36,016 nt of DNA from Candidatus Andersenbacteria bacterium RIFCSPHIGHO2_02_FULL_45_11 (GTDB lineage: Bacteria; Patescibacteriota; Andersenbacteria; UBA10190). The notes below the pieces were generated by a model that saw nothing but the letters and a program-made list of their open reading frames with translations, was not told the origin of the DNA and ran no database searches. Positions 8,699 to 34,789 of this stretch are shown in pieces. The stretch lies in assembly GCA_001817055.1 (NCBI GenBank), contig MHHP01000021.1, forward strand, positions 1-36,016, read 5' to 3'. Each line of letters starts with the position of its first letter. Position 1 is the stretch's first letter. The translations under genes and the position numbers were made by a program.

Positions 8699-8845
8699 CG
8701 TCGCGCTCCCTTCTCCTGTTTTGGGAGAAGGTTAGCTTTGCCTTTGTGCAAAGCGCGGATGAGGGGAAGTGAATAGCAGCTAACGCCCCTCACCCCTGCC
8801 TGCCGGCAGGCAGGCTAGCCCTCTCCCAGAACGGGAGAGGGGAAC
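8699..8845 (+). repeat. Composite GC-rich hairpin repeat, family B, copy 1 (fills the convergent HD/comFC spacer)
   Basis: Four modules are present: hairpin ccttctcc/ggagaagg (8709-8731); an extra hairpin gctttgc/gcaaagc (8735-8754); gagggg...cccctc; and a perfect 20-bp palindrome cctgcctgccggcaggcagg (8795-8814), followed by hairpin ccctctccc/gggagaggg (8819-8841). It is colinear with 23487-23596 and with the reverse complement of 14259-14378. Confidence 0.85.
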
Positions 8846-12793: not shown

Positions 12794-12889
12794 AGATTTC
12801 TCCCCCTCGTATGAGGGGGAGCGAGAGGGGGTGCGTTGCTTGCTACGTACTGACCCCACCTCGCCTCCCCTCATATGAGGGGAGGAAAT
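12794..12889 (+). repeat. GC-rich double-hairpin repeat, family A, copy 1 (intergenic, upstream of recX)
   Basis: tttctccccctcgtatgagggggagcgagagggggtgcg...ctacgt.ctgaccccacctcgcctcccctcatatgaggggaggaaat. It has the same architecture as the 95-bp copies at 24625-24719 and 25241-25335, and its 3' half is nearly identical to theirs. Confidence 0.85.
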
Positions 12890-12908
12890 ACGCTACAATC
12901 TATATATT

Positions 12909-13343
12909 ATGCAAAAATCATCGGAAAAATCTGCGCGTCATATTGCGATTGATATTTTATCCCGGCGGGATAATAGCGTGCGAGAAGTGCGGCAGAAGCT
13001 GAAGAAGAAGGGGATTGCCGAAGAAGATATTGCTGAAACAGTAGATTGGCTGCAAGAAAAAAAGCTATTAGACGATAGCGTCTTTGCTCAGAAAAAAGCT
13101 GAAAGCATATATCGAACCAAGCTGGTAGGCCCTTCATATATAAGGATGAAATTAAAATCAGCAGGAATTGAAGACTCTACAATAGAGATAGTATTGGACG
13201 ATCTGGCTGATAATCAGCAGTGGCAAGACCGTGCCAGGCAGGCAATAGCGCAATGGAAAAAAGCGCATCCTAAACACGCAGAAGACAAAACCCGCCACAT
13301 GCGGTTTTTAGCATCAAGAGGATTTGATCTATATCTCTCGTAA
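12909..13343 (+). CDS. recX: Recombination regulator RecX
   Basis: 144 aa of three-helix repeats: A..IL.RR..S..E...KL..KGI.EE.I...V..L....LLDD..FA......, with C-terminal ..FL.SRGF. TACAAT (12894-12899) lies 9 nt before the ATG. Confidence 0.8.
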   Translation: MQKSSEKSARHIAIDILSRRDNSVREVRQKLKKKGIAEEDIAETVDWLQEKKLLDDSVFAQKKAESIYRTKLVGPSYIRMKLKSAGIEDSTIEIVLDDLADNQQWQDRARQAIAQWKKAHPKHAEDKTRHMRFLASRGFDLYLS

Positions 13344-14243
13344 TCGCTTGATTCGTTCTTCTAGCGGCGGATGAGTTGAAAGTAAGCCAGAAAAGGAACT
13401 CCCACCCCCTCTAACTCCCCCTCGGGCAGGGGGAGAACCAAACGGGTTTGCAATAAACAGGTGTGCCGTTGCATTGCTCGCAGTTTCTAGTGGGCTGCTA
13501 TGAGCGATTTTTTCTAATGCCCGCGCTAATCCTTCCGGGTAGCGTGTTAATAGTGCACCGGAAGAATCTGCCAAGTATTCCCGTTGGCGAGAAATCGCAA
13601 GTTGGATAATTTGCGCAATGATGGGGGATATAAGGAGGAGAACAATGCTGATAATTGCAATAAGTGCATTACTTTGATTGTTATCTCGACTTCTACGCCC
13701 ACCTCCAAAGAACATTGACCTGCCCACCAAGTCAGACAAAATCACAATGAACCCAACAAAGATTGCAACGAGTGTAGAAAATCGGATGTCATAATTTTTT
13801 ACATGAGATAGTTCGTGCGCAAGTACGCCTTCAAGCTCAGATTGCTCTAGTGCATGTAATAATCCTGTAGTTACTGCAATAGATGCATGCTCCGGGTCGC
13901 GCCCTGTTGCAAATGCGTTCATGGCAGGGGATTGGATAATATATATCTTTGGTGTTGGTACGCCTGCTGTAATTGCCAAGTTTTCAATAATGCGCGTAAG
14001 TTCCGGCGCTTCTTCTTTGGTAACCGCCTGTGCACGATTTGCAGCTAGTGCAATTTTATCTCCCGTATAGTAACCGATGAGCGAAGAAGGGATAGCGAGT
14101 ATAGCAGCGAGTATAGCGAGCGAAAAGTCTTGGTATCGAGAATACGAATACAGTGCGACAACACCGATTACGAATACAAGAACAATTACAACGAGAAAAA
14201 TTGATTTTCGCTTATTCGAAGAAATTTGTGAGTAGATGGTCAT
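13329..14243 (-). CDS. htpX: Zinc metalloprotease HtpX (M48 family)
   Basis: HELSHVKNYD (HExxH), four TM segments and a C-terminal LSTHPPLEERI motif. A repeat-derived insert (SPPARGGVRGGGS) sits just before STHPP. Confidence 0.9.
   Translation of the reverse strand: MTIYSQISSNKRKSIFLVVIVLVFVIGVVALYSYSRYQDFSLAILAAILAIPSSLIGYYTGDKIALAANRAQAVTKEEAPELTRIIENLAITAGVPTPKIYIIQSPAMNAFATGRDPEHASIAVTTGLLHALEQSELEGVLAHELSHVKNYDIRFSTLVAIFVGFIVILSDLVGRSMFFGGGRRSRDNNQSNALIAIISIVLLLISPIIAQIIQLAISRQREYLADSSGALLTRYPEGLARALEKIAHSSPLETASNATAHLFIANPFGSPPARGGVRGGGSSFSGLLSTHPPLEERIKRLREI
13399..13436 (-). repeat. GC-rich hairpin repeat, family C, copy inside htpX
   Basis: The reverse complement tctccccctgcccgagggggagTtAgagggggtgggag differs from the pheT copies at 2 positions in the core. 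It is in frame and is translated as SPPARGGVRGGG. Confidence 0.85.
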
Positions 14244-14258
14244 TGTTTATATAGTTAT

Positions 14259-14378
14259 CCCCTCGCCCCGGATGGGGAGAGGGTTAGCCTGCCTGCCGGC
14301 AGGGGTGAGGGGCCGTTAAGTCGACTAATTTCCCCTCATCCTCGCCTTCTCCCCGTCAGGGGAGAAGGGAGCGGCTAC
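14259..14378 (-). repeat. Composite GC-rich hairpin repeat, family B, copy 2 (lemA-htpX spacer, inverted orientation)
   Basis: The reverse complement reads gctcccttctcccctgacggggagaaggcgaggatgagggga...cccctcacccctgccggcaggcaggctaaccctctccccatccggggcgagggg, colinear with the copies at 8699 and 23487. Confidence 0.85.
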
Positions 14379-22613: not shown

Positions 22614-23462
22614 ATGCTTGAAACTGTATTTACTATATTCATTCTCTTCGCTCTCGGCGCTGCAATCGGCAGTTTTTTGCATGTAGTTGCAGAGCGATAT
22701 ATGGACGCTCTAACCTCCCCTAACCCCTCCTTCGTAAGGAGGGGAATGCGACGCGTTCTCTCCCCCTTACGAAGGGGGAGCTGGAGGGGGTTAGTCTTAG
22801 GGAGGTCGTACTGCCCACATTGCAAGAAGCAATTAACTGCCCGCGAACTCGTACCCATTTTTTCGTATATATTTCAAAAAGGACGATGCAGAGGATGTGG
22901 TGTGCGCATTCCAATGCACTACGCAGTACTGGAGGTGCTATCAGGAATTTTGTGTGTCGCATTCATTGCGCCTGCATTCGTAGCAGGTCAGCTATTAACT
23001 ATTCCCATATTGCTCTACATAGCAGCATGTATATTGATTATATTAATTCACATAGATGCGCGCAGTATGATGCTGCCTGATGTGTTTATTTTGATACTTG
23101 GAATTATTGCGCTCGTAATCGCCAGTATTTCCGGGCTATCTGGTGATAGTATGGCGTTTGGCGCGCTTGTGGGTGCGGGGGTGATCTATGCAATATGGCT
23201 CGCAACTGCAGGGCAGGGTATAGGATTTGGGGATGTAAAGCTGATGATCCCGCTCGGCATCTTATTCGGGTTTCAGGGCGTGGTAACGTTGCTTTTTATT
23301 GCCTTTCTAGTTGGAGGGCTTGTAGGGGTAGTGTTACTTGCAACTAACAGCGCAACACGGAAAACCGCAATCCCATTTGGGCCATTTTTAGCTGGCGCTG
23401 CCCTTGTGCTTATGGTATTTCCATCTATTTCTGATCGGTTTTTTGTGCTTTTAGGGGTATGA
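22614..23462 (+). CDS. pilD: Prepilin peptidase PilD (A24 family) carrying a repeat-derived insert of about 30 aa
   Basis: GSFLHVV, CPHC...RCRGC zinc motif, GFGDVKLM and PFGPFL active-site Asp motifs. TGCTATGAT (22599-22607) lies 6 nt before the ATG. Confidence 0.9.
   Translation: MLETVFTIFILFALGAAIGSFLHVVAERYMDALTSPNPSFVRRGMRRVLSPLRRGSWRGLVLGRSYCPHCKKQLTARELVPIFSYIFQKGRCRGCGVRIPMHYAVLEVLSGILCVAFIAPAFVAGQLLTIPILLYIAACILIILIHIDARSMMLPDVFILILGIIALVIASISGLSGDSMAFGALVGAGVIYAIWLATAGQGIGFGDVKLMIPLGILFGFQGVVTLLFIAFLVGGLVGVVLLATNSATRKTAIPFGPFLAGAALVLMVFPSISDRFFVLLGV
22709..22806 (+). repeat. MITE-like GC-rich element (family C variant) in frame inside pilD
   Basis: Two 9-bp-stem hairpins: cccctcctt-cgt-aaggagggg (22724-22744) and ctccccctt-acg-aagggggag (22760-22780). 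Imperfect inverted termini: acctcccctaa..cccctcc on the left, ggagggggtt..ttagggaggt on the right. The 3' half tctccccctt.cgaagggggagctggagggggt matches the pheT/htpX core. Confidence 0.8.
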
Positions 23463-23469
23463 TTAGGGT

Positions 23470-24168
23470 ATGAAGTTCGTGACATTCGTTCGCGCTCCCT
23501 TCTCCCCAGACGGGGAGAAGGCGAGGATGAGGGGGTATCGTCGCGCCCATTTTCCCCTCACCCCAACCCTCTCCCCGTCCGGGGCGAGGGGGGCTACGAT
23601 GGGCTTTTCCCTCGTCGAATCTCTCGTTATCATTTCCATTATCAGTATATTGGCTTCGTTGTCTTTGGTTGCCCTTCCGGCTGCGCGTGCGCACCAGCAG
23701 CTTATTTCGGATACTGAACTGATACAGTCGTTATTGCTAGATACAAAAGAGCGTGCATTAAATCAGGTACGCCCAGAAGGGTGCCTACGAGATGATTCAA
23801 ATCCAGAATCGGCAGATCGCGCTGCCTGTTCAGATGTAGGGATTATATTTGAAGGCGGTAAAGTTATGCAGTTCGCTAATATTGCAGGAGGAACAGAAGA
23901 AGATCCGGACTATGTCTATAGTGGTGACACAGAGCATCCTATTGTAGAGCACCAACTTCTTACGTCTGTAGTTGAGGAGGAAGAGGGTGGCGTAAGGCAA
24001 ATCCTGTTTCGGTCTGTTCCGCCATCCGTTGAGACGTATAAAGATGGGGCAGTTATGGAGCCGAAAGATACTGCACATATAACGCTCAAAGCGAGTAATG
24101 GAGAATTACGCAAGCTCGCGGTGAGTCAGTTTGGTACACTAGATATTGTTAATGATTATGCAAAATAA
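23470..24168 (+). CDS. Minor (pseudo)pilin with a prepilin N-terminal motif
   Basis: G|FSLVESLVIISIISILASL. The long form starts at ATG 23470, giving a 44-aa leader encoded almost wholly by repeat B3. An alternative ATG at 23599 gives MG|FSLVE, with a GAGGGGGG element from the repeat upstream. Confidence 0.7.
   Translation: MKFVTFVRAPFSPDGEKARMRGYRRAHFPLTPTLSPSGARGATMGFSLVESLVIISIISILASLSLVALPAARAHQQLISDTELIQSLLLDTKERALNQVRPEGCLRDDSNPESADRAACSDVGIIFEGGKVMQFANIAGGTEEDPDYVYSGDTEHPIVEHQLLTSVVEEEEGGVRQILFRSVPPSVETYKDGAVMEPKDTAHITLKASNGELRKLAVSQFGTLDIVNDYAK
23487..23596 (+). repeat. Composite GC-rich hairpin repeat, family B, copy 3 (5' end of a minor pilin gene)
   Basis: cgcgctcccttctccccagacggggagaaggcgaggatgaggggg...cccctcaccccaaccctctccccgtccggggcgagggg. 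It lacks the 20-bp palindrome module present in copies 1 and 2. Confidence 0.85.
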
Positions 24169-24601
24169 AGGGTTTACACTTGTAGAAGTATTAATCGGAC
24201 TGTCTATTGCCACAGCTGCTGCGGTATCTGTTGCATATACAATCGCAAATACGAATAAAGTTGCCGATGCGGGAAAGCAAACATTTATTGCAACTAACTT
24301 AGCGCATGAAGGATTGGAATTAACGCGGGCATTGCGTGATGATATATGGTTTACGGAAGGTGTGCAGGAGGATGCTGATTGGTCCGATGAAATAGTGGTG
24401 AGTGAAGATATTAATAAAACTATAATTTTTGATCAAGACCCAACAGAATTCATTCGTACGGTTATGATAACTCAAGATGATGACCATGATGAGTATATTA
24501 ACGTGACTTCGAAAGTGGACTGGACAAGTGCTCGGGGAGAGGGGAAAAACGTTGAAATAAAAGAAAAGCTTTATAATTGGTATGTAACGCCAACACCATG
24601 A
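24158..24601 (+). CDS. Minor pilin (prepilin-type N-terminal cleavage/methylation domain)
   Basis: MQNKG|FTLVEVLIGLSIA. It overlaps the upstream gene's stop. An alternative ATG lies at 24152. Confidence 0.75.
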   Translation: MQNKGFTLVEVLIGLSIATAAAVSVAYTIANTNKVADAGKQTFIATNLAHEGLELTRALRDDIWFTEGVQEDADWSDEIVVSEDINKTIIFDQDPTEFIRTVMITQDDDHDEYINVTSKVDWTSARGEGKNVEIKEKLYNWYVTPTP

Positions 24602-25230
24602 AAACGAAATCAAAGATTAACGTCGCGTATTTCTCCCCCTTGGATAAGGGGGAGCGCGAGGGGGTAGTAACGCTACGTCCGACCCCACCTCGCCTCCCCT
24701 CATATGAGGGGAGGAAATCTGCTGCGTTCACGCTGATCGAATTATTAATCGCCATGGGCATATTTGCCGTATTTATTACGATTATTACGGGGGTGTTTAC
24801 GAACTTTATCCAAGTTCAACGCCACGCCATTGCGCAAGGGCAATTAATTTCAGACATGCGGTCTGCAATGGAGGCGTTTATAAAAGAAGCGCGAACAGGC
24901 TACGGGTCTACGTATGCAGCTGAGGGGGACGCAGTTGTATTTGTGAATCAAAATAATGATTGTATTACGTTCCGAGTTATTGACGGTCAATTCAAGCGTG
25001 CAGATGCGGGGGAGCAAGATGTGTGTAGCGCTGAGGATTCCGATAGTAATCGTTTTAGCCCTATCACGAGTAAGGCGACAGAAATTATTGGCCTTGAGTT
25101 TAGCATTCCCGTTGACCGTGTTATCACAATCAAGCTCACGGCTACATCTAAAAAAGACGGCATTCCGCCAATTAGCATTCAAAATTCTATAACATCTCGC
25201 CAAATGGAACCATATGCGCAGAACCAATAA
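24598..25230 (+). CDS. Minor pilin with the family A repeat in its leader
   Basis: ATGA start/stop overlap with the upstream gene. The sequence reads MKTKSKINVA-[YFSPLDKGEREGVVTLRPTPPRLPSYEGRKS]-AAFTLIELLIAMGIF. No in-frame ATG, GTG or TTG lies between the repeat and the FTLIELL motif. Confidence 0.7.
   Translation: MKTKSKINVAYFSPLDKGEREGVVTLRPTPPRLPSYEGRKSAAFTLIELLIAMGIFAVFITIITGVFTNFIQVQRHAIAQGQLISDMRSAMEAFIKEARTGYGSTYAAEGDAVVFVNQNNDCITFRVIDGQFKRADAGEQDVCSAEDSDSNRFSPITSKATEIIGLEFSIPVDRVITIKLTATSKKDGIPPISIQNSITSRQMEPYAQNQ
24625..24719 (+). repeat. GC-rich double-hairpin repeat, family A, copy 2 (in frame, minor pilin leader)
   Basis: 95 bp, identical to 25241-25335. Hairpins ctccccctt-ggat-aagggggag and cctcccctca-ta-tgaggggagg. 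Confidence 0.9.
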
Positions 25231-25687
25231 AAAATATACAGCGTATTTCTCCCCCTTGGATAAGGGGGAGCGCGAGGGGGTAGTAACGCTACGTCCGACC
25301 CCACCTCGCCTCCCCTCATATGAGGGGAGGAAATCGGCTCAGCGTGGCTCAGTCGTCATTACTATTGTTTTATTTATGATTATCCTCATGACGTCTTCTG
25401 CCGTAGTGTTATCTGGCACACTCTCTCGCCACATTCGTGCATCACAAGACTATTTATCGTCAGAAAAAGCTTTTGCAGGGGCAAATACCGGCATGGAAGA
25501 AATACGATACAAGGTAAAGCAGGGTGATTATGAGCCTATTAAAGATGCTGAAATGGCATACGATGGCCAAGTAGTTACATATAACGCATCAGCAGAGAAC
25601 GATGGCGCCTGCATTATTTCATCTGGAACATTTAAAAATCTTGTACGTCGCGTGCAGTTCGGGGGAGAAGGGTGTAATCAACAATGA
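25214..25687 (+). CDS. PilX-like minor pilin / pilus assembly protein with the family A repeat in its N-terminus
   Basis: MRRTNKKYTA-[the same 31-aa repeat peptide]-AQRGSVVITIVLFMIILMTSSAVV, a QRGS + TM helix as in PilX N-terminal domains. It overlaps the upstream gene by 17 nt and ligA by 4 nt (ATGA). Confidence 0.6.
   Translation: MRRTNKKYTAYFSPLDKGEREGVVTLRPTPPRLPSYEGRKSAQRGSVVITIVLFMIILMTSSAVVLSGTLSRHIRASQDYLSSEKAFAGANTGMEEIRYKVKQGDYEPIKDAEMAYDGQVVTYNASAENDGACIISSGTFKNLVRRVQFGGEGCNQQ
25241..25335 (+). repeat. GC-rich double-hairpin repeat, family A, copy 3 (in frame)
   Basis: Identical over 95 bp to 24625-24719, and read in the same frame. Confidence 0.9.
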
Positions 25688-30932: not shown

Positions 30933-31004
30933 TAGCGGGGGCTGGGATTGCACCAGCGATCTCCTGGTTATGAGCCAGGCGAGATACTACTTCTCCACCC
31001 CGCG
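30933..31004 (-). tRNA. tRNA-Met (CAT), initiator-like
   Basis: Cloverleaf CGCGGGG-TG-GAGA-AGTAGTA-TCTC-G-CCTGG-CTCATAA-CCAGG-AGATC-GCTGG-TGCAATC-CCAGC-CCCCGCT-A. It has a C1:U72 mismatch, A11:U24 and the same 5' CGCGGGG as E. coli tRNA-fMet. Atypical features: the D-loop lacks GG, the T-loop is TGCAATC, only two G:C pairs close the anticodon stem, and CCA is not encoded. Confidence 0.7.
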
Positions 31005-31016
31005 TTATGTGAAAGG

Positions 31017-31025
31017 AGCATAGCA
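31017..31025 (-). promoter_or_regulatory. Extended -10 element (TGCTATGCT) 12 nt upstream of the initiator-like tRNA
   Basis: The reverse complement of agcatagca is TGnTATGCT. It would drive a tRNA-gpmI transcript. Confidence 0.4.
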
Positions 31026-31179
31026 GAATATATGCTCTTGCGCAATAAAGTAGAAGAGGAAGAATGGAAGTACGACCACTGGAGGAACTCGAAGACTGAT
31101 GCACACAGATCTGTCGAAGTTAGACCACTAGTGAGTCCTTTGGAGCATCCGGCCTCATTTTTATGAGAAACCGGCTTAA

Positions 31180-31209
31180 CAGCGCCGACCTCGGCGCTGT
31201 TTTATTTTT
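31180..31209 (+). terminator. Rho-independent terminator (plus strand) with no assigned upstream gene
   Basis: cagcgccga-cc-tcggcgctg is followed by ttttattttt. Confidence 0.7.
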
Positions 31210-31237
31210 GCTCATCCTATGTATAATGCCCTGTATT

Positions 31238-31311
31238 GGTGACGTAGCTCAGTCGGTTAGAGCGTGGGACTCATAAGCCCGAGGTCGGAGGTTCGATTCC
31301 TCCCGTCACCA
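31238..31311 (+). tRNA. tRNA with CAT anticodon, elongator type (Met; lysidine-modified Ile2 not excluded)
   Basis: GGTGACG-TA-GCTC-AGTCGGTTA-GAGC-G-TGGGA-CTCATAA-GCCCG-AGGTC-GGAGG-TTCGATT-CCTCC-CGTCACC-A. G1:C72 is paired. TATAAT (31222-31227) lies 10 nt upstream. Confidence 0.85.
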
Positions 31312-31357
31312 CAAATTTCTTTACAAACACATAGATTTCGGTATCTTATGTAGTACT

Positions 31358-31434
31358 GGGCTTGAAGTGTAACGGTTTTGCATGTCTCCCTGTCACGGAG
31401 AAGGCAGCGGGTTCGACTCCCGTCAGGCCCGCCA
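31358..31434 (+). tRNA. tRNA-Asp (GTC), CCA encoded
   Basis: GGGCTTG...TCTCC-CTGTCAC-GGAGA...GCGGG-TTCGACT-CCCGT-CAGGCCC-G-CCA. Confidence 0.9.
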
Positions 31435-31452
31435 ATAGTGTAGTATACAATT

Positions 31453-31866
31453 ATGACAGTCAAAGCATTTGGGCTTGGGTCCTTTATTACCGCCCTTATT
31501 TCCTGGGGAATTTTGTTTCTGATCATTAATTGGATCGACCCTACTAAAAGTGCCGCGGCTGCATTTATTCTCTTTTTTCTCACACTCTTTTTAGCCGTTG
31601 CAGCAACGGCAGGCTTAATTGGGTACATTGCCCGTACCATATTTATGCGTCATCAGCTCCCGGCATATCGCGTGCGCCCATCCCTTCGGCAAGGAGTATT
31701 TTTAGGAGTATTTGTTGATCTGCTCCTCTTTTTACAATTGGAGAGGATTTTAGTATGGTGGGTAAGCGCGATTATCGTTCTACTCTTTATTGTGATTGAA
31801 TTAGTATTTACGTCATATGACCGACATGGAGCAACAACTCGAGGATCTACAGAAGCAAGCCAATAA
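31453..31866 (+). CDS. Small integral membrane protein, unknown function
   Basis: 137 aa with four hydrophobic helices. TAGTAT (31441-31446) lies 6 nt before the ATG. Its 3' end overlaps the pheS start by 50 nt. Confidence 0.6.
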   Translation: MTVKAFGLGSFITALISWGILFLIINWIDPTKSAAAAFILFFLTLFLAVAATAGLIGYIARTIFMRHQLPAYRVRPSLRQGVFLGVFVDLLLFLQLERILVWWVSAIIVLLFIVIELVFTSYDRHGATTRGSTEASQ

Positions 31867-32932
31867 AGAGCTTGCAGAAGTTTCGGATGCATCTGCCTTA
31901 GAGGCATGGCGCGTTTTATATATCGGGCGAAAGGGAAAACTCCCTGAGCTGCTTCGTGGTGTTAAGGATTTAGGCGATGAAGAAAAGAGAGTGATTGGTA
32001 AAGCGGCGAATATATTAAAGAGAACACTTGAAGAAGCATATTCTGTAAAACAAGAGTCGTTTATCGCATCCGCACCTAATAAGCTAATGAAAGCCCTGCC
32101 TGCCGGCAGGCAGGTACAAGCTAACGAAGCTAGCGTAGGCCATTTGCATCCGATCACACTTACGATTGAACGTGTGCAAAATATTTTTGCGGCTATGGGC
32201 TTCATTATCGCCGATGGCCCGGAAGTGGAAGAGGCAAGATATAACTTTGATGCACTAAATATTCCGTCAGATCATCCTGCTCGTGGAGAAGGGGATACGT
32301 TTATGATTGATCCTAAGAGTGTGAGTGGGGAACAGGATGTAGTGCTGCGTACGCAAACATCGCCGATGCAGATCCGATCCGTGGAAACGATGCGCCTCAC
32401 CCCGCCATTTTATGTAATTGCTCCAGGCCGAGTATATCTAAGGGAAAAAGTAGATGCAACACACGAATCAACGTTTTATCAATTTGAGGGCTTAGGAATA
32501 GGGGAGGATATAACAATTGCAGATTTTAAGGGGGTTATTGCTGCATTCTTTTCTACATTCTTTCAAAAAGACGTAACCGTGCGTCTACGTCCTTCATACT
32601 TTCCGTTTGTCGAGCCTGGATTTGAAGTTGATATGAGTTGCGTTTTTTGTGCTCAAAAAGGGTGCAGGGTTTGTAAGTACACAGGTTGGATTGAAGTAAT
32701 GGGTGCTGGCATGGTACATCCGAACGTACTCAAAAATATGAATATTGATCCAACGAAGTATCAGGGCTTCGCCTTCGGTGGCGCTATTGATCGGCTTACA
32801 ATGATCCGACATGGTATTAACGATATTAGGATGTTTTGGAGTGGAGATATTAGGTTTTTACGACAGTTCTCGAACTGTCATTCCGGCCCCCGAGCCGGAA
32901 TCCACGTGGATGCCGGATCAAGTCCGGCATGA
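31817..32932 (+). CDS. pheS: Phenylalanine--tRNA ligase alpha subunit, with a repeat-derived C-terminal extension
   Basis: HPARGEGDTF, RTQTSPMQIR, FRPSYFPFVEPG and GAGMVHPNVL class II motifs. The conserved end ..GDIRFLRQF is followed by 20 extra codons (SNCHSGPRAGIHVDAGSSPA) and a stop from a palindromic element. An alternative ATG lies at 31826. Confidence 0.9.
   Translation: MTDMEQQLEDLQKQANKELAEVSDASALEAWRVLYIGRKGKLPELLRGVKDLGDEEKRVIGKAANILKRTLEEAYSVKQESFIASAPNKLMKALPAGRQVQANEASVGHLHPITLTIERVQNIFAAMGFIIADGPEVEEARYNFDALNIPSDHPARGEGDTFMIDPKSVSGEQDVVLRTQTSPMQIRSVETMRLTPPFYVIAPGRVYLREKVDATHESTFYQFEGLGIGEDITIADFKGVIAAFFSTFFQKDVTVRLRPSYFPFVEPGFEVDMSCVFCAQKGCRVCKYTGWIEVMGAGMVHPNVLKNMNIDPTKYQGFAFGGAIDRLTMIRHGINDIRMFWSGDIRFLRQFSNCHSGPRAGIHVDAGSSPA
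32095..32114. repeat. Perfect 20-bp palindrome cctgcctgccggcaggcagg inside pheS
   Basis: Identical to 8795-8814 (a module of repeat B1). A 16-bp version lies at 14288-14303. Here it is translated as (A)LPAGRQV. Confidence 0.85.
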
Positions 32933-32944: not shown

Positions 32945-34789
32945 ATGAAATTCTCGTACCAAAAAATTAAAAAAATAATTCCAAGCCTCACACTATCTCC
33001 AAAAGAGTTGGCAGAGCTTCTTACCATGCATGCGTTTGAAACTGTTGTTGATCGCGAGTACGTAATAGATCCAAGCATGACGGTTGTAAAAATTCTCAAG
33101 CTCGATCCTCATCCAAACGCAGACCGTCTTCGTCTTGCAACAGTAACCGACGGAACGAACGAAATCCGAGTTGTATGTGGTGCGCTAAACATTGAAGTGG
33201 GGCAGATTGTCCCGTACGCACCTCCGGGAGCACGTGTGTATGATGAGCACGGTGAATTATTTACCTTGAAAGAAGCAGTGATTCGAGGAGAGACAAGCCC
33301 CGGAATGTTAAATTCTGTCCGAGAACTAGGGATATCAGACGATCATGGCGGAATCCTGATTCTTCCCGAAGATACCCTCATTGGGTCAAAGCTTGCTCTG
33401 CATATTCCAAGCGATACGATATTTGACGCTGATGTGCTACCTGATCGCGCGCACGATGTGCAATCAGAAGAAGATATTGCGCACGAAATCGCAGCACTTC
33501 TTGGGCTTGCAAAATCATCTGACCGAAAGATGGGTACGCACACAATTGCTTTTAATCCAGATAGTCCAAGTAAAATTGCGGGGGTAAACATTTCTCATGA
33601 AGAAGTGCGGGATATTTTGGAACGATTAGGGTTTATAATCTCTCCCCCTGCCCGAGGGGGAGCTGGAGGGGGTGGGAGTGGCGACGTGTGGTCTGTGACC
33701 GTCCCGTCTGCGCGCCCTGATGTGCTGGGCGAGCATAATTTGGTTGATGAAGTTGTTCGCGTGCACGGACTTGATGCAATTCCACCGTCTACAATGGATT
33801 TCTCAAAGCCATTACCCGTATCACCATCAGTATATTGGATTGGACTCATTCGTCGCACACTTGCAGAATCAGGATTTACAGAAACGTATAGCTATTCGTT
33901 TGAAGATGAACGATTTGCGAAATTGGTGAACACAGAAATTCATCCGCACGTTGAGCTTTCAAACCCTATGGCACCGGAGCTGAAGAATCTCAGGTACTCG
34001 ATGCTGCCAGGGCTAATTTCTGCAATGGTGAAAAGTCGAGATGACATTCATCGGACAAAGAAAAATCAGGAGAGGGCCCTGTTTGAAATAGGGCGTGTAT
34101 ATCATCGGGGCGATGAGGGTGTAGTGCCTGGTATTATTGAGCGGCCTGTTATCGCAGGCATCGCGGTAGGGGATGAGGTAACACTACAAAATATCGTTGA
34201 TCGCATTCGAGAATTGTTTCAGATAGAAGCGCTCACTGTTATTCCTGCAGAAAAGCCATTTGCGAAATACAGTCTTTTGAAATACGCGGATGAATTTTTC
34301 GGTATTGGATATATATTCAGCAATGAACTCCTGAAAAAGATGAAATACAGAATGCCGGTCATTGCGTTTGAAATAAGTTTCAACGCGCTCATGAAGCATG
34401 CGCCAGATGTGGAAATTCCTGTGCGGACACTGGACGAGATTCGAAATACACTAGAAACTCCCGCGCAATTCGTCGAACTGCCAAAATATCCAAGCGTATT
34501 TCGAGATATATCAATGCTCGTACGTCCGGAAGTAACCGTCGAGCAAGTCCAAGAAATTATTGAGCGTATTGGAAAAGGGTTAGTCGTAGACGTGGATCTC
34601 TTTGATGAATTTACGCCTCTCCCCCTGCCCGAGGGGGAGCTGGAGGGGGTGGGAGTGGCGCGAAAATCTCTGGCGTTTCATATTGAATATAGATCTTCAG
34701 AAAAAACCCTTACCGATACAGAAATAGCAGAATTGCACTCAAAAATCGAACACGCCCTCAAGAAAGAATGTAACGCCGAAATACGGTAA
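32945..34789 (+). CDS. pheT: Phenylalanine--tRNA ligase beta subunit (short form, B3/B4 editing domain missing, two repeat inserts)
   Basis: tRNA-binding (EMAP-like) domain DPHPNADRLRL..VVCGA, B5 domain (VTVPSARPDV..LVDEVVRVHGLD), B6/7, and a C-terminal FDX-ACB domain (KYPSVFRDIS...KSLAFHIEY). It is 614 aa, against about 795 aa in E. coli. Confidence 0.9.
   Translation: MKFSYQKIKKIIPSLTLSPKELAELLTMHAFETVVDREYVIDPSMTVVKILKLDPHPNADRLRLATVTDGTNEIRVVCGALNIEVGQIVPYAPPGARVYDEHGELFTLKEAVIRGETSPGMLNSVRELGISDDHGGILILPEDTLIGSKLALHIPSDTIFDADVLPDRAHDVQSEEDIAHEIAALLGLAKSSDRKMGTHTIAFNPDSPSKIAGVNISHEEVRDILERLGFIISPPARGGAGGGGSGDVWSVTVPSARPDVLGEHNLVDEVVRVHGLDAIPPSTMDFSKPLPVSPSVYWIGLIRRTLAESGFTETYSYSFEDERFAKLVNTEIHPHVELSNPMAPELKNLRYSMLPGLISAMVKSRDDIHRTKKNQERALFEIGRVYHRGDEGVVPGIIERPVIAGIAVGDEVTLQNIVDRIRELFQIEALTVIPAEKPFAKYSLLKYADEFFGIGYIFSNELLKKMKYRMPVIAFEISFNALMKHAPDVEIPVRTLDEIRNTLETPAQFVELPKYPSVFRDISMLVRPEVTVEQVQEIIERIGKGLVVDVDLFDEFTPLPLPEGELEGVGVARKSLAFHIEYRSSEKTLTDTEIAELHSKIEHALKKECNAEIR
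33641..33683 (+). repeat. GC-rich hairpin repeat, family C, copy 1 in pheT
   Basis: tctccccctgcccgagggggagctggagggggtgggagtggcg, with hairpin ctccccct-gccc-gagggggag. It is translated as SPPARGGAGGGGSG. Confidence 0.9.
34618..34660 (+). repeat. GC-rich hairpin repeat, family C, copy 2 in pheT
   Basis: 43 bp identical to 33641-33683, but read in a different frame as LPLPEGELEGVGVA. Confidence 0.9.

Follow-up and report, generated by a model that had tools for sequence, protein, structure and literature searches.

Within a 36,016-nt stretch of DNA from Candidatus Andersenbacteria (contig MHHP01000021.1, positions 1–36,016; this whole stretch is called the window below), the phenylalanyl-tRNA synthetase (PheRS) gene pheT contains two identical copies of a 43-nt GC-rich hairpin sequence, which are read in two different frames. 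We consider it likely that this 43-mer is a terminal unit, occurring solo, of a palindromic family that is GC-rich and non-autonomous, of the type of the repetitive extragenic palindromes (REPs) and their hairpin-forming doublets (REPINs) or of the MITEs (miniature transposable elements with inverted repeats), and its reading as selfish DNA is supported by the comparisons described here. The family to which the 43-mer belongs as a half-unit is larger and has dimeric forms, it spans many phyla, and several other palindromic families behave alike in the window. None of these aspects was contained in the first-pass annotation, a description of the window made from its letters only, and neither was the bracketing of small DUF559 endonuclease genes by hairpins of the same kind in other genomes, which provides a new lead.

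The 43-mer TCTCCCCCTGCCCGAGGGGGAGCTGGAGGGGGTGGGAGTGGCG is present in two exact copies on the + strand, at 33641–33683 and 34618–34660, and the identity runs one base further 5′ (33640/34617) to give 44 nt. No match to it was found in 100 dinucleotide-preserving shuffles. The sequence has G or C at 33 of its 43 positions, in a window of ~46% GC, and contains a perfect 8-bp stem (CTCCCCCT/AGGGGGAG) closed by the 5-nt loop GCCCG. The hairpin energy of the 43-mer alone is ordinary for its composition (z = −0.46 versus shuffles), and its significance therefore comes from repetition and not from its fold. Specifically, copy 1 consists of the hairpin (33642–33662), the linker CTG, the tail GAGGGGGT (33666–33673) and then GGGAGTGGCG; it lies in the B5 domain and is read in phase 0 as PheT residues 233–246 (SPPARGGAGGGGSG). 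Copy 2 is located in the FDX-ACB domain, and its identical DNA is read in phase 2 as residues 559–572 (LPLPEGELEGVGVA). A third solo half-element of 39 nt is situated on the − strand at 13398–13436, within the gene of the M48 peptidase HtpX (13329–14243, − strand, 304 aa; Pfam PF01435, E = 3e-37). It is 95% identical to the 43-mer, with two mismatches that both fall in the linker (TTA replacing CTG), and encodes HtpX residues 270–282 (SPPARGGVRGGGS) in frame, just N-terminal to the STHPP motif. Altogether, three sense frames are used in the window, giving SPPARGG... in pheT site 1 and htpX, LPLPEGELEGV in pheT site 2 and SPLRRGSWRGL in a prepilin peptidase gene. A conserved protein motif was rejected as an explanation, since one DNA sequence is read in three frames into different peptides. 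None of the six frames of the 43-mer contains a stop codon, and the encoded peptides are rich in Gly, Pro, Glu, Arg and Leu; the predicted junction peptides across the inserts are LGFIISPPAR, GGAGGGGSGDVWSVTVPSAR and DLFDEFTPLPLPEGELEGVGVAR. The first-pass annotation had already described the two pheT copies in different frames of an open 614-aa reading frame, their G+C count and hairpin, and the reverse-strand copy in htpX, and recomputation reproduced all of these features.

The host gene pheT (32945–34789, + strand, 614 aa; assigned by Pfam) lies directly 3′ of pheS and is syntenic with the orthologous contigs, which have the order pheS-pheT-gyrB-secE-nusG-rplK-rplA in common. Its product matches, at 100% identity, a protein encoded by a metagenome-assembled genome of Candidatus Andersenbacteria, a member of the Candidate Phyla Radiation (CPR)/Patescibacteria, from the Rifle aquifer, and comprises tRNA_bind, B5 (residues 201–275), CLM and FDX-ACB (residues 513–614) domains. 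To judge from its place in the conserved pheS-pheT-gyrB-secE-nusG locus, the insert-bearing pheT does not seem to be a spare paralogue.

We aligned 20 PheT orthologues of 46–74% identity, in which the window protein is P0001. Among them, site 1 is occupied in P0001 and P0004 only and site 2 in P0001 and P0013 only, while a third PheT site holds the same element in P0003, P0014 and P0016. At every site and in each orthologue, the net length of the insert is divisible by three. In the AlphaFold model of PheT (mean predicted local distance difference test score, pLDDT, 84), both inserts form turns between paired β-strands: copy 1 between strands 231–233 and 249–254, with pLDDT below 50 at residues 238–244, and copy 2 between strands 547–556 and 574–582, with pLDDT below 50 at residues 565–568. 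Likewise, the HtpX insert falls in a loop of variable length and is absent from 43 representative homologues. The inserts are thus scattered, lineage-specific indels in loops. A codon alignment of six pheT genes further demonstrates that the element is conserved beyond its host gene: at site 1 the window and P0004 agree at 43 of 44 nt, compared with 66% over the whole gene (P = 3e-7), and at site 2 the window and P0013 agree at 40 of 43 nt, compared with 64% (P = 1e-5). In a neighbour-joining tree of 549 ungapped PheT columns, each occupied lineage has an empty sister with 73–100% bootstrap support, with the groupings P0001 + P0002/P0003 (93%), P0004 + P0005–P0010 (81%), P0013/P0017 (100%) and P0014/P0015 (100%). 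This scattered occupancy therefore requires either recurrent insertion into a few loops, or old insertions with many precise losses together with uniformity of the DNA; we favour recurrent gain over an old insertion kept uniform. The use of three frames, the scattered indels and the DNA conservation above that of the host gene all bear out the earlier proposal of a mobile or selfish DNA rather than a protein motif.

The 43-mer belongs to a repeat family whose unit consists of the hairpin CTCCCCCT-N4-6-AGGGGGAG, a 3-nt linker and the tail GAGGGGGT, which repeats the 3′ arm; units of the CPR subfamily carry an extra GGGAG after the tail. We counted 13 perfect C-run hairpins with stems of 8 bp or longer in the window, and 30 mononucleotide shuffles contain none. 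The units are 31–44 nt long and occur as singletons (twice in pheT, in htpX and in tmk) and as tail-to-tail or head-to-head dimers of 85–99 nt. The head-to-head dimer (22710–22801) is composed of an inverted half-element (22710–22745), a 13-nt spacer and a half-element (22759–22794), and is located inside the prepilin peptidase gene (22614–23462), where it is read as ..SPNPSFVRRGMRRVLSPLRRGSWRGLV.. in the third sense frame. The Pfam domain A24_N_bact spans residues 14–118 of this protein against 81 model positions, implying an insert of ~24 aa, and the single-stranded DNA fold of the dimer is far more stable than expected (z = −4.35). A 99-nt tail-to-tail dimer at 24625–24723 (+ strand), with the arrangement hairpin-GAGGGGGT, 16-nt spacer, ACCCCACCTC-hairpin, contributes 33 codons in frame to the N-terminal leader of a pilin-like open reading frame (ORF; 24598–25230), upstream of the AFTLIELL methylation motif, and its single-strand fold reaches z = −5.55. 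A second 99-nt tail-to-tail dimer at 25241–25339 (+ strand), 99% identical to the former, likewise adds 33 codons to the leader in the N-terminal part of a pilin-like ORF (25214–25687), whose start codon is uncertain, one annotation beginning downstream of the element. The two pilin-like genes are adjacent, and each contains one 99-nt dimer in its N-terminal leader region. Another tail-to-tail dimer of 99 nt, at 12796–12894 (+ strand), is intergenic and has the same hairpins, with 62% identity in register. The spacers of the 99-nt dimers hold GTAG/CTAC at the inner tails (GAGGGGGTAG...CTACGTCC). Additionally, the same genome contains, just past the window, an in-frame copy in a thymidylate kinase gene (the second tmk of a tandem pair, tmk2) and an intergenic dimer. 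In tmk2, the elements lie at different sites in two genomes, which shows that independent insertions occur. A search of the whole window with Rfam at gathering thresholds returned nothing at the elements.

The repeat is not confined to the three sites first noticed in pheT and htpX: besides the copies in intergenic DNA of the window and in further genes of the same genome, it is found in many other genomes. We scanned the GTDB species representatives with the pattern CTCCCCCT-N4-6-AGGGGGAG-NNN-GAGGGGGT, which has 25 fixed bases, and obtained matches in at least 117 stretches from many phyla. The hosts among the matches listed include Gallionellaceae, Nitrosomonadales, Bacteroidales, cyanobacteria, Planctomycetota, Poribacteria, Omnitrophota, Armatimonadota and many CPR classes. 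Across phyla, the 31-nt core is conserved and the flanks are not, and inverted dimers are common among the listed matches. About 30% of the sampled copies lie deep in long open frames, in both orientations, and the recognizable host genes elsewhere comprise mfd, uvrC, a U32 peptidase and glycosyltransferases. We do not claim an orientation bias, the solos in the Andersenbacteria genes examined all being sense and the copies across phyla dividing into ~18 sense and 13 antisense. Phages were considered as the main carriers and showed no sign of this role, with only five pattern matches on viral contigs. The cyanobacterial copies (L037, L039, L057, L071, L075, L077, L088, L096 and L103) have a conserved ...ACTTGTGTGTACACCGTAG downstream at a near-constant distance, which points to a composite repeat of larger size that has a GTAG end in this phylum; ...ACACCGTAG is also found after cyanobacterial copies.

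All-against-all clustering of the ORFs in the 117 loci yielded one specific recurrent family, DUF559, with proteins of ~120 aa. The other clusters are generic (histidine kinases, ABC-F proteins, glycosyltransferases), and no Y1 or DDE transposase family was found among the ORF clusters of these loci. DUF559 genes occur in five loci from different phyla (L035, L045, L067, L076 and L108), and all five are bracketed by hairpins within tens of bases. In a second sample of 80 metagenomic DUF559 loci (L121–L200), chosen by protein similarity alone, we counted the C-run hairpins that are perfect over 7 bp or more and lie no further than 150 nt from the DUF559 gene. Such hairpins were present upstream in 41 of 74 loci, downstream in 38 of 74 and on both sides in 26 of 68; 53% of DUF559 gene ends were bracketed versus 2% for neighbouring genes (2 of 93 ends), and the background at least 300 nt away from DUF559 genes was 0.025 per search interval. 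Terminal inverted repeats of 14–40 nt flank the gene at 29 of 69 loci, and among 83 hairpins the G-run tail points towards the DUF559 gene in 58 and outward in 11. The bracketed genes match the Pfam DUF559 model (E = 1e-33), and the DUF559 profile matches the PDB entries 3HRL (4e-30) and 3R3P, the homing endonuclease I-Bth0305I (4e-5). A published classification places Vsr, DUF559 and I-Bth0305I in one clade (PMC3424549). I-Bth0305I resides in a group I intron, whereas the DUF559 gene here stands free between inverted repeats of the hairpin type. The searches returned at least 7,996 small DUF559 proteins, many of them on very short contigs, as expected because repeats break assemblies. The DUF559 genes with their hairpins have the look of compact cassettes of ~500 bp, and the 99-nt tail-to-tail dimers of the window match the arrangement of these cassettes minus the gene. 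Together, these data suggest an autonomous parent element that would encode DUF559; our literature search found no paper tying DUF559 to repeats. On a Paludibacter contig (L035, 1–1973, − strand), a DNA methyltransferase-like ORF harbours a DUF559 cassette together with the hairpins on its flanks, and the 657-aa frame is open throughout the cassette.

From these observations we propose the following model. Copies of the element would be pasted into new sites, and in a gene-dense genome many of them would land in coding DNA, where selection would retain only those that lengthen the gene by a multiple of three bases and fall within tolerant surface loops. The repeat would then be translated through as a loop extension, whatever the landing frame, and the inserts would keep the protein open and probably folded. 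Such ready tolerance may be explained by the lack of stop codons in all six frames together with the flexible Gly/Pro/Glu/Arg-rich peptides; for the same reason, an open frame alone is no evidence of translation, and it is the frame preservation across the inserts that provides it. The mobilizing activity may well be the small DUF559 (Vsr-like PD-(D/E)XK) endonuclease, a proposal that we make tentatively, and with slightly more reserve we suggest that the C-run/G-run hairpins are the ends of an unrecognised but widespread cassette of ~450–550 bp whose sole gene is DUF559. The 99-nt tail-to-tail dimers would be gene-less derivatives of this cassette and the pheT 43-mers its single ends, and the cassette nuclease acting in trans would spread both in many phyla, into essential genes included. 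We infer the transposition itself and its enzymology, and a link of DUF559 to this particular genome would presume that the nuclease is present there.

In-frame palindromic insertion is established for the Rickettsia palindromic elements (RPEs; PMC10969869) and for GTAG and CGTC REPs, which may be found two per gene and in tRNA synthetase hosts (PMC3733652). The RPEs, cited as a precedent in the first-pass annotation, hold as an analogue, being palindromes in frame at fold-compatible, tolerated positions of unrelated genes, housekeeping genes included, in a small reduced genome (PMC10969869; PMC3733652). They do not hold as relatives: RPEs are ~100–150 bp long, restricted to Rickettsia and encode a conserved peptide per family, whereas the present unit, compared by description, has 31–44 nt, is read in at least three frames, resides in a CPR host and has a GC-run hairpin core found in many phyla. 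A likeness to REPs and REPINs also exists, as these are short (20–40 bp), imperfect GC-rich palindromes in many copies that form singlets and both types of dimer and can be intragenic (PMC3733652). Correspondingly, we observed 13 hairpins in the window and at least 117 loci elsewhere; the dimers of the window are joined tail to tail at 12796, 24625 and 25241 and head to head at 22710. As for the GTAG/CGTC tag of REPs, it is absent from the pheT and htpX solos, and GTAG/CTAC appears in the 99-nt dimer spacers and downstream of the cyanobacterial copies. REPs also flank a cognate REP-associated tyrosine transposase (RAYT), none of which was found by ORF clustering in the window or the 117 loci; the present family instead brackets a PD-(D/E)XK endonuclease gene and not a Y1 transposase, and its core is shared across phyla. 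With respect to MITEs (Correia/NEMIS, ERIC, Nezha), the gene-less dimers resemble internal-deletion derivatives of a longer unit, and their terminal inverted repeats are common to a protein-coding element, the DUF559 cassettes of other genomes; intragenic in-frame fusions are known for MITEs as well (PMC10969869). They differ in that the present elements show no target-site duplication, the only ORF of the putative parent is a ~120-aa nuclease rather than a DDE or HUH transposase, and single ends have also spread. Thus, the element works like RPEs and intragenic REPs but is a member of neither, being much shorter than RPEs, untagged in its solos and possessed of a cross-phylum core. Yeast mitochondrial GC clusters and cyanobacterial small dispersed repeats are likewise tiny GC-rich palindromes that spread in genomes of lower GC content, sometimes in coding or structural genes; they have other hosts and other sequences, and no DUF559 link is known for either. 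Our literature search found no description of this family and no paper on REP or MITE elements in CPR bacteria.

Several other explanations were weighed against this model. Each pheT site might have been hit once in a deep ancestor and inherited vertically with repeated deletion, the copies being kept uniform by gene conversion or by selection on a DNA or RNA hairpin. We regard this as possible, though distinctly less probable than recurrent gain. It would account for the junctions, which are the same to the base in the window and P0004 ((A/G)TC followed directly by TCTCCCCC, the element ending in GGGAGTGGCGA), and for the empty site 1 of P0003 (L207), which reads ATT TCT CCC ACT TGG and so retains the first 6 nt of the element; this TCTCCC could be a deletion footprint or a target microhomology. 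The conservation of the core motif across phyla also implies some DNA-level constraint in any case. An old insertion, however, would demand at least three precise in-frame losses at site 1 and many more at sites 2 and 3, as against two to three gains per site, and it leaves unexplained why the non-core tail GGGAGTGGCG, which is unconserved across phyla, is also identical between two pheT genes, and why the tmk2 elements occupy different sites in two genomes. It is unlikely, in our estimate, that the repeats are instead GTAG-type REPs copied via single-stranded intermediates by a single-copy RAYT (Y1 HUH) elsewhere in the genome, with the DUF559 genes as mere neighbours or targets. The singlets and the head-to-head and tail-to-tail dimers fit REP organisation, intragenic REPs have the documented properties given above, two per gene and tRNA synthetase genes included, and the GTAG/CTAC of the 99-nt dimer spacers and the ...ACACCGTAG of the cyanobacterial copies would be in line with such an origin. 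Against it stand the untagged pheT and htpX solos and a core common to several phyla, whereas REP-like repeats are normally lineage-specific. The recurrence of only DUF559 and generic families in the 117 loci points the same way, although weakly, as a single-copy RAYT would rarely fall within such stretches. Moreover, the family is not among the REP-encoded peptides in the examined part of Additional file 3 of PMC3733652, and the GTAG REP peptides catalogued there are unlike it.

A function selected by the host, whether as DNA-uptake or recombination signals, as RNA hairpins tuning translation or mRNA stability, or as selected flexible linkers, appears improbable. It would draw on the strong sequence conservation, on the type IV pilus and ComF-like competence genes in the window and on the intergenic copies between convergent and tandem genes, where terminators occur. 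Uptake sequences, however, are short (~9–12 nt) and species-specific, whereas this motif is a 31-nt structured unit in unrelated phyla; its distribution is patchy among close relatives and its positions are poorly structured loops, the three peptides from one DNA exclude a motif at the protein level, and a nuclease cassette with inverted terminal repeats points to selfish DNA. More improbable still is removal of the element from the mRNA or its bypass by the ribosome, leaving a mature PheRS without the extra residues. The open frame is uninformative on this point, every frame of the element being free of stop codons, and strong hairpins typify known translational bypass sites (T4 gene 60, yeast mitochondrial byp elements). 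Nevertheless, the host frame is preserved across every insert, while removal of 43 or 44 nt would shift it, and the net insert lengths are multiples of three throughout; neither take-off/landing codon pairs nor an intron-like structure was seen, and Rfam gave nothing at the elements. Finally, the chance that an assembly or chimera artefact produced the repeats is practically negligible. Repeats do break assemblies, and one scaffold has a run of 100 N inside a 99-nt dimer, the sole structural difference among six assemblies. Twelve contigs, deriving from at least six samples and assemblers, nevertheless encode the identical 614-aa PheT, with a regional DNA identity of 99.9%, and orthologues recovered in unrelated projects have this element at matching sites. 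An artefact, which the first-pass annotation had flagged as a danger to its interpretation, was rejected on these grounds.

Several points weigh against the model of spreading, DUF559-mobilized elements, and temper its confidence. The window and ~100 kb of further Andersenbacteria DNA contain no DUF559 gene, no Y1 transposase and no transposase of another kind, and Andersenbacteria are not named among the top 120 DUF559 hits. The DUF559 seeds themselves came from element-bearing loci, and the association may therefore hold for a subfamily only. The net length change varies from 24 to ~42 nt by site, whereas the identical block has 44 nt, a length that three does not divide; clean cut-and-paste of a fixed length is therefore not the mode of insertion, and neither a target-site duplication nor a target motif was found at the pheT, htpX or DUF559-cassette junctions. 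Occupancy of the same junction in P0001 and P0004 could reflect old insertions plus gene conversion, with which the possible TCTCCC footprint of P0003 would agree. Translation of the inserts is deduced from the conservation of the frame. In addition, no presence/absence polymorphism of the elements was seen across the six independent assemblies of the same population, and recent movement is therefore not demonstrated.

CPR/Patescibacteria genomes are held to be extremely streamlined. On the preferred reading of the repeats as mobile palindromes, this 36-kb stretch nevertheless carries selfish palindromes in pheT (twice), pheS, htpX, the prepilin peptidase gene and two pilin-like genes, and genome reduction would be no shield, even for essential genes. 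The inserts would represent a ready source of protein loop extensions, and also a cause of annotation noise, alignment artefacts and broken metagenome assemblies. In-frame insertion itself is known; the new aspects are the DUF559 bracketing, the high intragenic density in a ‘streamlined’ CPR genome and the 31-nt hairpin core in many phyla, which is unusual for REP-like repeats. If the model is true, it would explain many low-complexity ‘PPxxGG / PLxKGExEGV’ segments in predicted proteomes. If the DUF559 link is also true, this very large family of unknown function would gain a role as the engine of a new mobile cassette, and a nuclease-only partner would join the REP-RAYT and MITE-transposase paradigms.

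Other palindromic families of the window show the same behaviour. A sister family of C-run/G-run hairpins forms an intergenic cluster between htpX and lemA (14259–14373; e.g., CCTTCTCCCCGTCAGGGGAGAAGG followed by a G-rich tail), which contains a 42-nt arm that is 98% complementary to 23493–23534. The latter lies within a sister-family inverted pair (23493–23594) upstream of what is likely the real start (MGFSLVES) of a pilin-like gene, and a further intergenic cluster between convergent genes (8750–8841) contains CCTGCCTGCCGGCAGGCAGG and CCCTCTCCCAGAACGGGAGAGGG. The palindrome CCCTGCCTGCCGGCAGGCAGG, of the CCTGCCTGCCGGCAGGCAGG family and unrelated to the 43-mer family, lies at 32094–32114 (+ strand) in a variable linker of pheS, where it is read as ALPAGRQ; an exact second copy is found at 8794–8814. 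The family thus occurs in the window twice between genes (8794–8814 and 14287–14307) and once within pheS, and the PheT of P0017 has an LPAGRQ insert as well. Another unrelated family, a double-hairpin element (GTCATTCCGG...CCGGCATGAC; 32876–32932, + strand), contributes to pheS its final 19 codons and its stop codon; among five orthologous PheS proteins, four finish at or shortly after FS (FSNI in one). The same double-hairpin family is read in another frame within PheT site 1 of P0016 (L208), and its peptides are of the type HSGPRAGIH..VDAGSSPA / MPDQARHD.

Some further features of the host genes and their surroundings were noted. The B3_4 editing domain was not found by Pfam in the window PheT, and it is missing from the whole clade of ~620-aa PheT orthologues, while other Andersenbacteria PheT proteins (~805 aa) retain it; this implies that PheRS editing has been lost in the ~620-aa clade. 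Three tRNA genes at 30933–31431 are the only Rfam matches in the window, and a mechanically called ORF (31257–31640) that overlaps two of them is probably spurious. Downstream of the window (L201, 15954–17326 and 17764–18897), the thymidylate kinase genes and the dCTP deaminase/dUTPase genes are arranged in tandem pairs.

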